Sequence record: PQ464628.1 | Direction: 5' to 3' (one strand) | From: Escherichia phage MirsaeidiM_Esher2 | Length of the DNA: 40,547 nt | Shown here: piece after piece, positions 16,113 to 19,602 of the stretch | Position numbering within the stretch: position 1 is the first letter of the stretch | Layout: every line of letters begins with the position of its first letter | Position numbers and translations under genes: made by a program | Notes under the pieces: generated by a model | The model's input: the letters and a program-made list of their open reading frames with translations, nothing else | What the model was told of the DNA's origin: nothing | Databases searched by the model: none

Positions 16113-18284
16113 ATGTTTGACATTAAGAGTATCTGGGGTTCTGACATCGAGACCAACGGTCTCCTTGATACAGTCTCCCAGTTTCACTGTGGGGTCCTGA
16201 TTAACGCCGAGTCGAATGAGACCCTTAAGTACGGGGTAGCTCCGATGGTCGGTATCGTCGGTGGCTTCAAAGAGTATGTTCATAAAGTGGAAGAGATTGC
16301 CGCATCACCTGATGGTATGCTGGTATTCCATAACGGTATCAACTATGACGTCCCGGCTATAGACAAGCTGAAGCGTTTGTACTTTGGGAAACGCTTTAAC
16401 TTCCCGAAACATAAGATGATTGATACCTTGGTGCTGGGACGCTTGATGTATCCAAACATTAAGTTCTCAGACATGGGCGCAGTGAAAGCTGGTCGTCTTC
16501 CACCTAAGATGATGGGACGCCAGTCTCTTGAGGCTTGGGGCTATCGTCTCGGTGAGATGAAAGGTGAGTACAAACACGATTACGTTGCCAAGTGCAAGGC
16601 TGAAGGCATCGAATATAAGGCTGGGGACGAATGGTTGTTCCCGTCTCAGGAGATGCTGGACTATAACGTTCAAGACGTTGTGGTCACACTGGCGTTGTTC
16701 AAGAAGTTCCTGACTGACAAGTATTACTTCCAGTCTGAACAGTTCGCTTTCGAACAGATTTATGCGTTGCGTCTGGAACACGATGCTGCGTGGACCTGTG
16801 CGAAGATGGAGCGTAACGGCTATCCGATGAACACCGAGATGGTCGAAGGCTTATATCGTGAACTCACCGTCAAACGTGCGGAGCTGCTGGACAAGCTGCG
16901 TTCGACTTTCGGCAGCTGGTACGCACCAAAGGGAGGAAAGGAGTTCTTCAAGCACCCACGGACAGGCAAGGACCTTCCGAAGTATCCGAGAGTCGTGTAT
17001 CCTAAGGTCGGTGTCATCTTTAAGAAGCCGAAGAACAAAGCTCAACGCTTAGGTCTTGAACCTTGTGAACTCGATACGCGAGACACGATGGAGGGAGCAC
17101 CATTCACGCCAATCACTTACGTTGAGTTTAATCCGGGAAGCGGAGACCACTTAGCGAAAGTATTGATGGAGCGTGGCTGGGAGCCTGTGGACTTCACTGA
17201 CACAGGGAAACCTGTAGTCGATGACGAGACGTTGGAACACGTTAAGTTACCAGACGCAGAGGCTCAGGCTTGCGTAGAGCTGGTCCGTGAGTATCTGGTA
17301 GTCCAGAAGCGAATCGGTCAGGCGGCTGAAGGTAAGAACGCATGGTTGAAACTTGTAGGTCCAGACGGACGTATGCACGGTTCAATCAACCCTTGTGGAG
17401 CAGTAACCGGACGTGCGACCCATAGTTCACCAAACATGGCTCAGGTCCCGGCTAACGGTGCTCCGTATGGTGAGACTTGCCGTGGTGCTTTCGGTGCAGC
17501 GTGGAACAAGAAGGATGGCAAGCCAGACCCTTGGATTCAAGTAGGTGTGGATGCTTCAGGTCTTGAGCTTCGTTGTCTGGGGAACCGAGCGGCTCCGTTT
17601 GATGGTGGCGACTATGCGAAGACTGTGGTCGAAGGTGACATCCACTGGGCCAACGCAGTCAACGCTGGGTTAGCACCTAACGTCCCACGCGACAAGTCCA
17701 GCCACGACCACGATGCTTTCCGTAACAACGCCAAGACGTTCATCTATGCGTTTCTGTATGGTGCAGGTGCCGCTAAGATTGGACTGATTGTAGGCGGTGG
17801 TAAGAAGGAAGGCGCGGCCCTGATGAAGAAATTTATTGAGGGTACACCAGCTATCAAGGACCTGCGAGAGGCTGTCCAGAACACGCTCATCTCCGAGTCC
17901 AAGTGGGTAGATGGTGAGAACATCGTGAAGTGGAAACGCCGCTGGCTTAAAGGTCTGGACGGTCGACGCATTCACATCCGGTCTCCACACTCAGCACTTA
18001 ACGCCTTGCTTCAAGGTGATGGTGCGGTGGTCTGCAAGCACTGGATAGTCGAGACCGAGCGTATGCTCGAAGAGGCCGGGTATGTCCACGGCTGGGAAGG
18101 AGACTTCGCGTACATGGCTTGGGTCCACGATGAGCTACAGATTGCGTGTCGCACTCAGGAGATTGCCGAAGAAGTCGTCAAGATTGCTCAACTTGCTATG
18201 CGTAAGGTGGGCGAGTTCTATAACTTTAAATGTGTGTTAGACACGGAGGGTAAAATTGGACCAACGTGGAAAGAATGCCATTGA
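16113..18284 (+). CDS. 5: DNA polymerase (T7 gp5 homolog, family A)
   Basis: 723 aa; FHNGINYDVPA, AVTGRATHSSPNMAQ, NAKTFIYAFLYGAG, AYMAWVHDELQ, C-terminal GKIGPTWKECH match recalled T7 gp5. Confidence 0.97.
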   Translation: MFDIKSIWGSDIETNGLLDTVSQFHCGVLINAESNETLKYGVAPMVGIVGGFKEYVHKVEEIAASPDGMLVFHNGINYDVPAIDKLKRLYFGKRFNFPKHKMIDTLVLGRLMYPNIKFSDMGAVKAGRLPPKMMGRQSLEAWGYRLGEMKGEYKHDYVAKCKAEGIEYKAGDEWLFPSQEMLDYNVQDVVVTLALFKKFLTDKYYFQSEQFAFEQIYALRLEHDAAWTCAKMERNGYPMNTEMVEGLYRELTVKRAELLDKLRSTFGSWYAPKGGKEFFKHPRTGKDLPKYPRVVYPKVGVIFKKPKNKAQRLGLEPCELDTRDTMEGAPFTPITYVEFNPGSGDHLAKVLMERGWEPVDFTDTGKPVVDDETLEHVKLPDAEAQACVELVREYLVVQKRIGQAAEGKNAWLKLVGPDGRMHGSINPCGAVTGRATHSSPNMAQVPANGAPYGETCRGAFGAAWNKKDGKPDPWIQVGVDASGLELRCLGNRAAPFDGGDYAKTVVEGDIHWANAVNAGLAPNVPRDKSSHDHDAFRNNAKTFIYAFLYGAGAAKIGLIVGGGKKEGAALMKKFIEGTPAIKDLREAVQNTLISESKWVDGENIVKWKRRWLKGLDGRRIHIRSPHSALNALLQGDGAVVCKHWIVETERMLEEAGYVHGWEGDFAYMAWVHDELQIACRTQEIAEEVVKIAQLAMRKVGEFYNFKCVLDTEGKIGPTWKECH

Positions 18285-18654
18285 CGGAAAGTCCCTGCAT
18301 TTTACAGGCGCTGCGAGCGAGCTGTATGCAAGTTACCGACTGACATCTATTGGACACCAAGTCTTCCTACCAGCGTTCACCCAGTCCAAAGCGGACTTAG
18401 TGGTGGATATTAACGGGACCCTTAAGAGGGTTCAGGTGAAGACTGGGACCAAGCTGAAGAACTGCAATAGCATTCAGGTCCGACTCGGTGGGTGCGGAAA
18501 GCCCACCTACAGCCCGGGAGAGATTGACCTACTGGCTGTGGTCTATCAGGATAACTTCTGGCTGATTCCGTTCGTGGAAGAAGTGAGGCTTAAAACCTCC
18601 ATGTGTATAAACCTAACGTCCGACAAGAAGTACGGACACTTTAAACAGGAGTAA
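18256..18654 (+). CDS. hypothetical protein (132 aa), possible PD-(D/E)xK-like nuclease fold
   Basis: TTG start with GGAGGG 5 nt upstream, overlapping the end of gene 5; contains D-x(n)-QVK arrangement (ADLVVDINGTLKRVQVK); function is inference only. Confidence 0.5.
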   Translation: MDQRGKNAIDGKSLHFTGAASELYASYRLTSIGHQVFLPAFTQSKADLVVDINGTLKRVQVKTGTKLKNCNSIQVRLGGCGKPTYSPGEIDLLAVVYQDNFWLIPFVEEVRLKTSMCINLTSDKKYGHFKQE

Positions 18655-18659
18655 CCACA

Positions 18660-18950
18660 ATGGCTATGACCAAACGTATGCGAGTATCGTTCTCGATGGG
18701 TGCTGTACTGTCTACTGGAGACGTTGAGCACATCAAGAAGTCTCTCTGTGATTTGAGCCGTAAGGTTCTCAATGGTGAGAAGACCACTGGCTTCGAGCGT
18801 AAGATGGTCGAGGTAGGCGTTACAGAGGGTCTGGAAGCTGTGGTAGAGCTTGTCTTTGAGAAAGGCATTGTTGATGGCCTGAAAGAAGACCTGAGTCGTT
18901 ACGTTGACCAGCCCAGCTTCGGAGGCTTCCGAGTGGAGTTCAAACGATGA
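18660..18950 (+). CDS. 5.5: gp5.5-like protein
   Basis: 96 aa; N-terminus MAMTKR..VSF resembles recalled T7 gp5.5; SD AGGAG. Confidence 0.65.
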   Translation: MAMTKRMRVSFSMGAVLSTGDVEHIKKSLCDLSRKVLNGEKTTGFERKMVEVGVTEGLEAVVELVFEKGIVDGLKEDLSRYVDQPSFGGFRVEFKR

Positions 18951-19156
18951 GTGAATACTTACGGGTCCTAGCGGCCCTTAAGTCCTGCCCGAAGACCTTT
19001 CAGTCCAACTATGTGCGCAACAATGCAGCACTGGTGGCTGAGGCTGCGAGTCGTGGACATCTAAGCTGCCTGTCTATGGACGGGCGTAACAACGGTGCGT
19101 GGGAGATTACCGCCGAAGGCGTTAAGTTCCTGAACCAACACGGAGGCTGTCTATGA
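18947..19156 (+). CDS. 5.7: gp5.7-like protein
   Basis: 69 aa; LKSCPKTFQSNYVRNNAALVAEAASRGH..GAWEIT matches recalled T7 gp5.7; start overlaps previous stop. Confidence 0.75.
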   Translation: MSEYLRVLAALKSCPKTFQSNYVRNNAALVAEAASRGHLSCLSMDGRNNGAWEITAEGVKFLNQHGGCL

Positions 19157-19602
19157 AGATACCTGAAAGTCTGAAAGAGCTGGTCCTTGAAATGGGTGAG
19201 TGCGAGATGACGCACCGTAAGTATGCTGAGTTCTACGCATCTTGGTCTTACACCCTGACCGAGAAGGACGTTGAGTCCTACACCGAGTCTCCTTCTGAGG
19301 CTTATGAGTGGAGTCCGTTCATCGGACTGACCATCGTAGCTAGCGGTATGTGGGATGACAGCTACGGCTCAGAGGTAAACGACTGGGACGTGTACCGCCA
19401 AGTTGAGAAGGAGACCGAAATGTCGTCCAACTTCTGGAGCCTGATGTCCCACCTCAACTCAGATGACAACGACATGGCCCATGAGTTCGCCAACAAATGG
19501 CTGAAGCCTGAGGTGACTCTGGAACGTATTGAGGAGCCTAAAGTTCCCTTGATGCCATATGCAGTCGCTATGGCTACAGGAGGTCTGGACGATGGGTGCT
19601 GA
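19153..19602 (+). CDS. hypothetical highly acidic protein (149 aa) at the gp5.9 position
   Basis: SD GGAGG 6 nt upstream; strongly acidic composition; lies between gene 5.7 and the exonuclease gene. Confidence 0.6.
   Translation: MKIPESLKELVLEMGECEMTHRKYAEFYASWSYTLTEKDVESYTESPSEAYEWSPFIGLTIVASGMWDDSYGSEVNDWDVYRQVEKETEMSSNFWSLMSHLNSDDNDMAHEFANKWLKPEVTLERIEEPKVPLMPYAVAMATGGLDDGC

Follow-up and report, generated by a model that had tools for sequence, protein, structure and literature searches.

A T7 gene 5.3 counterpart with a PD-(D/E)XK fold and a probable TTG start inside the DNA polymerase gene of a T7-like Escherichia phage

The DNA polymerase gene of Escherichia phage MirsaeidiM_Esher2 is overlapped at its 3' end by an open reading frame that has no ATG at its beginning. 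Is this frame a gene, from which codon would it be translated, and what might its product do? The original prediction, made by eye from the sequence, had proposed a TTG-initiated protein resembling PD-(D/E)XK nucleases. We followed this up in the window, that is, the whole stretch of 40,547 nucleotides that was analysed (PQ464628.1); its source is a T7-like phage (Kayfunavirus). The features at this locus are:

16113..18284, + strand: DNA polymerase gene, homologue of T7 gene 5, whose last codons hold the Shine-Dalgarno sequence and the TTG
18245..18250, + strand: Shine-Dalgarno sequence GGAGGG, read from the sequence inside the polymerase codons ACG-GAG-GGT (T-E-G)
18256..18258, + strand: probable TTG start codon, within the polymerase codons ATT-GGA; sole canonical start of the open stretch
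18256..18284, + strand: overlap of the nuclease and polymerase genes, 29 nt, encoding the leader MDQRGKNAID in the +1 frame
18256..18654, + strand: coding sequence of the PD-(D/E)XK nuclease, stop codon included, T7 gp5.3 family (PF11645), assigned from family, fold and dN/dS
18660..18950, + strand: following gene, gp5.5 (family of H-NS-binding proteins, PF11247), separated from the nuclease stop codon by 5 nt

Reality of the gene and its family

The coordinates agree with the original prediction. The frame comprises 132 codons beginning with TTG, overlaps the polymerase end by 29 nt, and has a single in-frame ATG close to its own end (codon 116, position 18601). A frame that has no ATG start and overlaps a long gene may be a chance product, and the related GenBank record of Salmonella phage ST16 annotates only a shorter piece of it. 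Against this stand a match to a curated Pfam family, 3852 homologous cluster representatives at E ≤ 1e-3, a confident structure model with a specific fold match, and the pattern of substitution in the part outside the overlap. There, dN/dS between two allele groups was about 0.03 (57 differences were synonymous and 15 non-synonymous, and the synonymous sites were close to saturation), which indicates that the gene is under strong purifying selection. Homology and dN/dS rule out a chance open frame, whose probability we consider negligible, and we are almost certain that 18256..18654 is a real gene whose product has a PD-(D/E)XK fold.

The gene is of an ordinary kind that is known to the databases, and its product is a member of the T7 gp5.3/PF11645 family. 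The protein matched PF11645 (PDDEXK_5) with 37.0 bits against a curated cut-off of 26.1 (E = 4.2e-9; residues 17-123 on positions 6-121 of the 138-position profile) and phrog_5018 with 6.5e-29. A search of NCBIfam with the protein gave no match, and PADLOC returned only a marginal 'HEase' match (E = 0.006) that we did not count as evidence. T7 gp5.3 (NP_041983) is 46% identical to the window protein over residues 15-118 (tblastn E = 6e-23) and Kvp1 gp5.3 is 50% identical, so that identity to these two PF11645 proteins is 46-50% over about 80-90% of the protein. The homologues of T7, Kvp1, KP32 and other Autographiviridae are similar in size (118-132 amino acids) and occupy the same slot between genes 5 and 5.5; in T7, Kvp1 and 12 IMG/VR loci (L078-L089) the homologue lies directly after the polymerase gene and before genes 5.5/5.7/6. 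Judged from sequence and position, the window gene is the counterpart of T7 gene 5.3, a relationship that the original prediction had missed. In the literature, we found gp5.3 and gene 5.3 mentioned only as non-essential and as a convenient insertion site. To our knowledge, T7 gp5.3 has gone for decades without an assigned function.

The gene should be annotated from the TTG as a member of the T7 gp5.3/PF11645 family. The GenBank annotation of ST16 starts at an internal ATG (codon 32), by which the first helix and an invariant glutamate (E22, see below) are lost, and the remaining 13 related GenBank records of ST phages list the product only as 'hypothetical protein'.

Fold and putative active site

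When the PDB was searched with the single sequence, the homing endonuclease I-Ssp6803I (2OST), the founding member of PF11645, was matched only weakly (E = 0.28). The match became significant once the single sequence was replaced by a profile of 90 homologues, which aligned with 2OST over its full length (E = 6.5e-14). An AlphaFold2 (AF2) model of the protein (pLDDT 77, pTM 0.72) has a helix at residues 18-31 and strands at residues 35-37, 48-52, 55-66, 72-76, 92-97 and 100-105; this predicted structure contains the alpha-beta-beta-beta-alpha-beta core characteristic of restriction-endonuclease-like proteins. The top Foldseek match of the model was again 2OST (E = 4.7e-7, TM 0.65), with its four chains found at E-values from 5e-7 to 6e-6, followed by Hjc resolvases, EcoRV and the nuclease domain of SPARDA. 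The resemblance to PD-(D/E)XK nucleases that had been noticed by eye is thus upheld by the Pfam score above its cut-off, by the family profile and by fold recognition on the model.

The residues of interest are encoded at:

18319..18321, + strand: codon of E22, acidic residue of helix 1, invariant in the 90-sequence alignment
18394..18396, + strand: codon of the invariant D47, which corresponds to the 'D' of the PD motif and is matched in 2OST by the Asp of SYDLVFD
18433..18441, + strand: codons of Q60-V61-K62, equivalent of (D/E)xK, here QxK; aligns to VQVK of 2OST

Among the 90 homologues, which are diverse (23-43% identity), no substitution occurs at E22, D47 or Q60, and V61 and K62 are each at least 90% conserved. 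The Asp and the QVK triad that had been singled out in the original prediction therefore belong to the most conserved residues of the family, alongside E22, and the protein carries what appears from the alignment to be a complete catalytic set, E22...D47...Q60-x-K62, of which D47 and Q60-x-K62 correspond to the family motif D...(D/E/Q)-x-K of the second and third core strands. The window protein and I-Ssp6803I share the PF11645 domain and the D...QVK motif at about 20% identity. The cyanobacterial enzyme has about 150 amino acids, about 20 more than the window protein, has a Gln in helix 1 where the window family has the invariant Glu, and is encoded by a group I intron in the Synechocystis tRNA-fMet gene, whereas the window protein is free-standing. 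We treated the gene as free-standing because an Rfam scan around it revealed neither a group I intron nor any other RNA family; the same scan of a locus with an interrupted polymerase gene (L034) was likewise empty for group I introns and other RNA families.

The acidic position of the (D/E)xK motif is occupied by Gln, and the protein might have kept the fold and lost catalysis, serving only in DNA binding or regulation. We consider this very unlikely: I-Ssp6803I has the same QxK and is active (PMC3384342), and the invariance or near-invariance of E22, D47, Q60 and K62 across the family is the pattern expected of an active site. The roles of the I-Ssp6803I residues were taken from the alignment and from a review (PMC3384342), which describes this PD-(D/E)XK homing endonuclease as a tetramer with a 23-bp pseudo-palindromic target. 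Our literature search found no published nuclease assay of any gp5.3-type protein. From its fold and conserved residues, we infer that the window protein is a nuclease; most likely, it would act as an oligomer that requires Mg2+ and cuts double-stranded DNA at specific sequences.

Translation start within the polymerase gene

The nuclease frame is closed by an in-frame TAG at 18238-18240, five codons upstream of the TTG, and is open from 18241. Between this stop and the conserved domain, which starts at about residue 15-17, there is no ATG, GTG or TTG other than the TTG at 18256. As the original prediction had pointed out, GGAGGG precedes this codon; the spacer is 5 nt (TAAAA), or 6 nt when counted from the GGAGG core. 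The mRNA of the start region showed no unusual folding (z = -0.36), and there is therefore no sign of translational control by structure. In T7 and Kvp1, a separate Shine-Dalgarno sequence and ATG follow the polymerase stop codon at a distance of 15-20 nt, and no more than 3-4 residues lie between this start and the conserved H-x-T-G-A-A-S-E helix; the window gene, in contrast, has no such signals and no room for them, and its product carries a leader of 14 residues. Residues 1-16 lie outside the conserved domain and are predicted to be disordered (pLDDT < 50 in the AF2 model). On this model, the first 14 or so residues are a disordered leader imposed by the overlap with the polymerase gene.

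The evidence for TTG initiation is comparative. The start that gene callers assigned to close homologues is the same (MDQRGKNAIDG), and the GenBank annotation of PV904160 uses the TTG. The Shine-Dalgarno sequence is carried by the window, ST16, Klebsiella phage SAKp10309, five IMG/VR loci (L022-L026) and deletion derivatives. Among IMG/VR loci, all 5 in which a gene is launched from the TTG have it, as against 0/14 related loci in which none is, an association that is not phylogenetically independent; the latter 14 have the synonymous codons ACC-GAA-GGT/G in place of ACG-GAG-GGT. The 3' end of the window polymerase gene itself switches from non-carrier-like to carrier-like sequence at the Shine-Dalgarno sequence, at about 18233-18244. 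Further support comes from a deletion in three viable Salmonella phages:

18316..18707, + strand: 392-nt stretch (± a few nt, GCTG microhomology) deleted in Salmonella phages Vb_SalP_792, ST38 and ST56

This deletion joins codons 1-17 of the nuclease gene in frame to gp5.5, which is left with the TTG as its only start. Altogether, the TTG at 18256 is probably the start codon, as judged from these sequence comparisons.

Two other ways of translating the gene have to be weighed. Initiation could occur at ATT 18280 or CTG 18295; the distant homologues at L085, L101 and L103 have no ATG, GTG or TTG upstream of the conserved helix, so non-canonical initiation does occur in the gp5.3 family. Alternatively, the protein could be made as an extension of the polymerase, since a +1 shift anywhere within 18241-18284, where both frames are open, would connect the two. 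Yet the TTG has a strong Shine-Dalgarno sequence at ideal spacing and the ATT and CTG have none, and this sequence co-occurs with genes launched from the TTG. As to frameshifting, inspection of the overlap revealed no slippery motif, and the proteins of T7, Kvp1 and nearly all of the best 150 of the 3852 family representatives are stand-alone, with about 120-145 amino acids; given these stand-alone homologues and the lack of a visible signal, we attach little weight to a fusion. A start elsewhere than at the TTG is, on the whole, unlikely.

With the TTG as the probable start, three unrelated genes can be found in frame with it in different phages: the PD-(D/E)XK gene in the window, a gene for an HNH endonuclease in L025 and L026, with identical TTG and Shine-Dalgarno sequence, and gp5.5 in Vb_SalP_792, ST38 and ST56. 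Within its final 40 nt, the polymerase gene may thus provide a fixed translational launch pad, with the Shine-Dalgarno sequence and a weak TTG embedded in the codons for T-E-G-K-I-G, a suggestion to which we give rather less than an even chance. Whatever downstream gene is present would plug into these polymerase-borne signals, and the TTG, being a weak start, would limit how much of a potentially toxic nuclease is made.

Distribution and possible function

The nuclease gene is present in the window, in 14 ST phages, in SAKp10309, in L022-L024 and in others. It is absent from vB_EcoP_F, the nearest whole-genome relative of the window and the phage to which the window backbone is closest, and from L008-L021; the slot after the polymerase gene holds a 52-aa frame in vB_EcoP_F and nothing in other relatives. 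Penshu1 has deletion remnants of the gene, and the gene was deleted independently among close relatives. In L025-L027 and L044 the same slot is taken by an HNH endonuclease gene (HNH_3, PF13392), for which L027 and L044 have a separate ATG downstream of the polymerase stop codon. HNH_3 is unrelated to the PD-(D/E)XK proteins in fold and in catalytic motif, and the intron-borne HNH endonucleases of T7-like polymerase genes are likewise unrelated to the window protein. T3-like phages have free-standing HNH homing endonucleases (T3/phiYeO3-12 gp5.3 type) directly after the polymerase gene, with a distribution as patchy as here, and phiYeO3-12 gp5.3, at the same position, has been annotated as a homing endonuclease (PMC4925675).

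Patchy presence and absence at one fixed site among close relatives, and a slot that abuts the conserved polymerase 3' end and is shared with an unrelated HNH_3 endonuclease, are both features of homing genes. If the protein acts in this way, it would cut those alleles of co-infecting relatives that lack the nuclease gene, close to the junction of genes 5 and 5.5, and recombinational repair would then copy the cassette in and maintain it. An exchanged block can be seen when mismatches are counted per 100 nt:

18160..18660, + strand: exchanged nuclease cassette, with at least 99% identity to phages ST16 (Salmonella) and SAKp10309 (Klebsiella)

Its flanks diverge from these two phages by 5-20%. 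As T7-like genomes are mosaic everywhere, such a block of high identity is not specific to homing; together with the breakpoint at 18233-18244, it is compatible both with homing and with ordinary mosaic recombination.

The main alternative to homing is that the gene encodes an accessory nuclease, conserved as part of the replication and recombination module of T7-like phages, which is inherited vertically with the polymerase, is occasionally lost and is not selfish. The gene belongs to the group of DNA-metabolism genes 4, 5 and 6, its homologues always lie directly after the polymerase gene, and across the Autographiviridae the identity of the homologues (34-52%) tracks that of the polymerases (28-58%). 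Its position, this tracking identity and the dN/dS of about 0.03 with near-saturated synonymous sites are explained by long vertical co-inheritance and a useful function no less well than by a selfish element. Instead of a selfish homing gene, the family as a whole perhaps represents a nuclease that is linked to the polymerase and has diverged along with it throughout the Autographiviridae. Such a nuclease could be a structure-specific, Hjc-related enzyme or could be directed against host or competitor DNA. The archaeal Holliday junction resolvases Hjc (1GEF, 4TKD) are the second-best structural matches and have a minimal PD-(D/E)XK core of similar size, but their Foldseek scores (E about 2e-3, TM about 0.5) are weaker than those of 2OST and they have no significant sequence match to the nuclease profile. 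Hjc is a structure-specific dimer, and nothing in our analysis of the window points to specificity for branched DNA. In T7, the junction resolvase is already endonuclease I (gp3). The dispensability of the gene in T7, its repeated loss in close relatives by independent deletions and the takeover of its slot by an unrelated HNH homing-type endonuclease also speak against a module nuclease, and the solved structure that comes closest, both in sequence and in fold, belongs to a homing endonuclease and not to a resolvase. We regard a role in the replication module as rather doubtful.

The homing-type role is our tentative choice for the function, held at just under even chances and inferred from distribution and kinship. 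As a whole, the explanation that we favour with moderate confidence is that of a T7 gene 5.3 counterpart, started from the TTG, which encodes a free-standing, homing-type nuclease. T7 gp5.3 thereby gains a testable hypothesis, namely that it is a site-specific nuclease whose free-standing gene, at the junction of genes 5 and 5.5, behaves as a homing cassette. This hypothesis is based on the intact putative catalytic set, very strong purifying selection, patchiness, the exchange of the cassette among phages of E. coli, Salmonella and Klebsiella, and the HNH alternative in the same slot. The value of these results lies mainly in annotation hygiene, with a modest lead on function. Since inserts are preferentially placed at the gene 5.3 locus when T7 is engineered, it is worth knowing that this locus encodes a putative nuclease and that, in the lineage of the window, the start signals of gene 5.3 are part of the polymerase coding sequence as well.

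Reading frame, fold and active site

The window represents the genome of a T7-like podophage, whose primase-helicase, DNA polymerase, gp5.5, gp5.7 and exonuclease genes follow the T7 gene order. Compared genome-wide against the phage collection, it is closest to Escherichia phage vB_EcoP_F (Kayfunavirus), with 95.4% identity across 92% of the window's first 25 kb. The 132-codon frame that had been proposed to start at a TTG and to overlap the end of the polymerase gene was found at exactly the predicted coordinates, preceded by a well-spaced GGAGGG, and its sole in-frame ATG is indeed codon 116.

Features at the polymerase-nuclease junction
16113..18284, + strand: DNA polymerase ORF, overlapping the nuclease ORF by 29 nt
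18238-18240, + strand: in-frame TAG, closing the frame five codons upstream of the TTG
18245-18250, + strand: GGAGGG, 5 nt ahead of the TTG
18256..18654, + strand: nuclease ORF, 132 codons from the TTG to the stop at 18652-18654

The protein matched Pfam PF11645 (PDDEXK_5) with 37 bits (curated cut-off 26.1) and phrog_5018 with 6.5e-29. In tblastn against phage genomes, homologues with 98.5% identity were found in Salmonella Typhi phages (ST series) and Klebsiella phage SAKp10309, and several phages of E. coli and Shigella carry homologues that are 88-92% identical; gene 5.3 of T7, Kvp1, KP32 and others is 46-50% identical. When 1.84 billion cluster representatives were searched with a profile, 3852 relatives were found at E<=1e-3; of the top 150, almost every one is a stand-alone protein 120-145 aa long. 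Purifying selection on the gene is strong: between the window-type allele and that of the IMG/VR loci L022-L024, we counted ~57 synonymous versus ~15 non-synonymous differences (dN/dS ~0.03) in the non-overlapping part, codons 11-132.

Fold recognition, suggested as a check of the proposed PD-(D/E)xK resemblance, pointed to the homing endonuclease I-Ssp6803I (PDB 2OST), a member of the PF11645 family described as active (PMC3384342). The profile of 90 diverse homologues matched 2OST over its whole length (E=6.5e-14). An AlphaFold2 model made from 11 sequences (pLDDT 77, pTM 0.72) has a disordered leader (residues 1-16), a helix (18-31) and then a series of strands. Its only Foldseek matches in the PDB below 1e-3 were the four chains of 2OST (best E=4.7e-7, TM 0.65), followed by archaeal Hjc resolvases, EcoRV and the SPARDA nuclease domain. 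The 90-homologue alignment shows no variation at E22, D47 or Q60 and at least 90% conservation at G18, P39, V61 and K62. The D...QVK of I-Ssp6803I lines up with D47 and Q60-V61-K62, residues conserved across the family, so that the Asp and QVK triad picked out in the original prediction is the family's catalytic signature; both proteins have Gln in place of the usual D/E. The gene, its fold and its catalytic residues are thus well supported, and nuclease activity is likely. We conclude that this is an ordinary gene of an established family, PF11645 (T7 gp5.3 group), and GenBank already contains almost identical copies of it.

Probable translation start within the polymerase gene

The TTG at 18256 is the only ATG, GTG or TTG ahead of the conserved domain, which starts at about residue 15. 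Gene 5.3 of T7 and Kvp1 has its own AGGAGG/AAGGAGG and ATG 15-20 nt past the polymerase stop, with only 3-4 residues ahead of the conserved H-x-T-G-A-A-S-E helix. In the window, by contrast, the His codon of this helix follows the polymerase stop after only 13 nt, which leaves no room for separate signals, so that initiation must fall inside the polymerase gene.

The Shine-Dalgarno sequence (SD) lies within the polymerase codons ACG-GAG-GGT. These were present in all five Kayfunavirus-like IMG/VR loci with a gene in the TTG frame (L022-24 with the PD-(D/E)XK gene, L025-26 with an HNH gene), whereas 14 loci without such a gene have the synonymous ACC-GAA-GGT/G, although this association lacks phylogenetic independence. 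The same 14 polymerase genes end in CAC-TAA-TG, with the ATG of the next gene overlapping the stop. Up to ~18233, the 3' region of the window's polymerase gene differs from non-carriers by 4-6 mismatches per 60 nt versus 18-23 from carriers; from ~18244 it turns carrier-type, precisely where the SD begins.

Furthermore, in the Salmonella phages Vb_SalP_792, ST38 and ST56, a 392-nt deletion ending at GCGCTG/GTGCTG microhomologies has taken out the nuclease gene and also the SD, the ATG and the initial 14 codons of gp5.5; what remains of gp5.5 continues in frame from nuclease codons 1-17 (TTG leader LDQRGKNAIDGKSLHFT). The fused gene occupies 1457-1759 in the Vb_SalP_792 locus, corresponding to window 18256-18315 plus 18708-18950. 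In these viable phages it lacks any further canonical start up to about codon 54, and the Vb_SalP_792 record annotates it as a 100-aa DUF2675 protein. The polymerase-embedded SD/TTG is found in frame with three different downstream genes. This launch pad and the natural gp5.5 fusion are mildly interesting.

Gene callers also gave the start MDQRGKNAIDG to close metagenomic homologues, and GenBank PV904160 annotates it with the product 'endonuclease'. The GenBank start in ST16 (1594-1899 of its locus) is an ATG at codon 32, where the window has Ile32; as a protein begun there would lack helix 1 and the invariant E22, this start is probably mis-annotated. In the sister ST records, 'hypothetical protein' is the only description given for the gene. 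mRNA folding around the start showed nothing special. The SD/TTG-gene association, the switch to carrier-type sequence, the gp5.5 fusion and the gene calls are comparative observations that favour the TTG initiation proposed from the sequence, and translation probably starts at 18256.

Several distant homologues (L085 2462-2782, L101/L103 ~2480-2920, L089 2471, L093 2483) have either a TTG start or none of ATG/GTG/TTG ahead of the conserved helix; in L085, ATT/ATA codons in the frame come after an AAGGAG. Weak or non-canonical starts may thus recur among these nucleases.

Variable slot and possible role

Close relatives differ in what fills the slot between genes 5 and 5.5.

Occupants of the slot (L numbers are compared loci)
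PD-(D/E)XK gene: window, ST phages, SAKp10309, HC12, YZ1, SFPH2, Zappy, L022-24
HNH_3 endonuclease: L025-27, L044; in L025 (2422-2775) and L026 (2422-2763) of T3/phiYeO3-12 gp5.3 type, in frame with the polymerase-embedded SD/TTG
52-aa ORF: vB_EcoP_F
Nuclease remnant: Escherichia phage Penshu1 (L006 641-781), with SD, TTG, ~13 codons, then the last ~27 codons and stop
Empty: L008-L011 and others

The Penshu1 remnant is degenerate and stems from an independent internal deletion. L027 and L044 carry the same HNH gene with its own SD/ATG past the polymerase stop; in L025 and L026, translation could also start at an internal ATG (HT-M-PTGC).

In its backbone the window resembles vB_EcoP_F, with 0-1 mismatch to it per 100 nt from 19160 on. 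Over the 500 nt of block 18160-18660, however, the window has 4 mismatches to ST16 and likewise to SAKp10309; the flanks in these two phages are 5-20% divergent from it. The cassette of SD, TTG and nuclease gene has therefore recently been transferred between phages isolated on different hosts.

The patchy slot, the cassette movement, the I-Ssp6803I family and the HNH occupant form the pattern expected of a free-standing homing endonuclease gene, and a homing-type role is our best single guess, held tentatively. Identity patterns alternate along the window in comparison with its relatives, as T7-like phages are generally mosaic, so an exchange of blocks does not in itself point to homing. The main alternative, which we regard as somewhat less likely, is a conserved replication-module nuclease that is old, useful, vertically inherited and occasionally lost. 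It would fit the very strong purifying selection and the homologues still directly downstream of polymerases sharing only 28-58% identity with that of the window, where nuclease identity (34-52%) tracks polymerase identity. For T7 gene 5.3, the only published statements met with are that it is non-essential and that its locus is convenient for insertions, and our literature search found no functional study of gp5.3 or its gene.

Further variation was seen nearby. In L034 (2297-2875; Ro45lw-like IMG/VR contig), ~590 nt with a 131-aa ORF of HNH-like sequence interrupt the polymerase gene between ...AYMAWVH and DELQIAC. The arrangement is like that reported for K1F-type polymerase genes, which contain a group I intron with homing endonuclease (PMC4925675); Rfam gave no intron match in this locus at the gathering threshold. 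A second variable slot lies at 19153-19602, the T7 gene 5.9 position. Its 149-aa ORF has no Pfam match, overlaps the exonuclease start (19559) by 44 nt, and is nearly identical in vB_EcoP_F, replaced by an unlike gene of 110 aa in ST16 and Vb_SalP_792, and missing in SAKp10309. Close relatives carry two or more strongly divergent alleles of the gp5.5 body (18686-18930), with 85-90% versus ~30-40% protein identity to the window and exchange boundaries at ~18686 and ~18930; the downstream gp5.7 is steady at ~97%.
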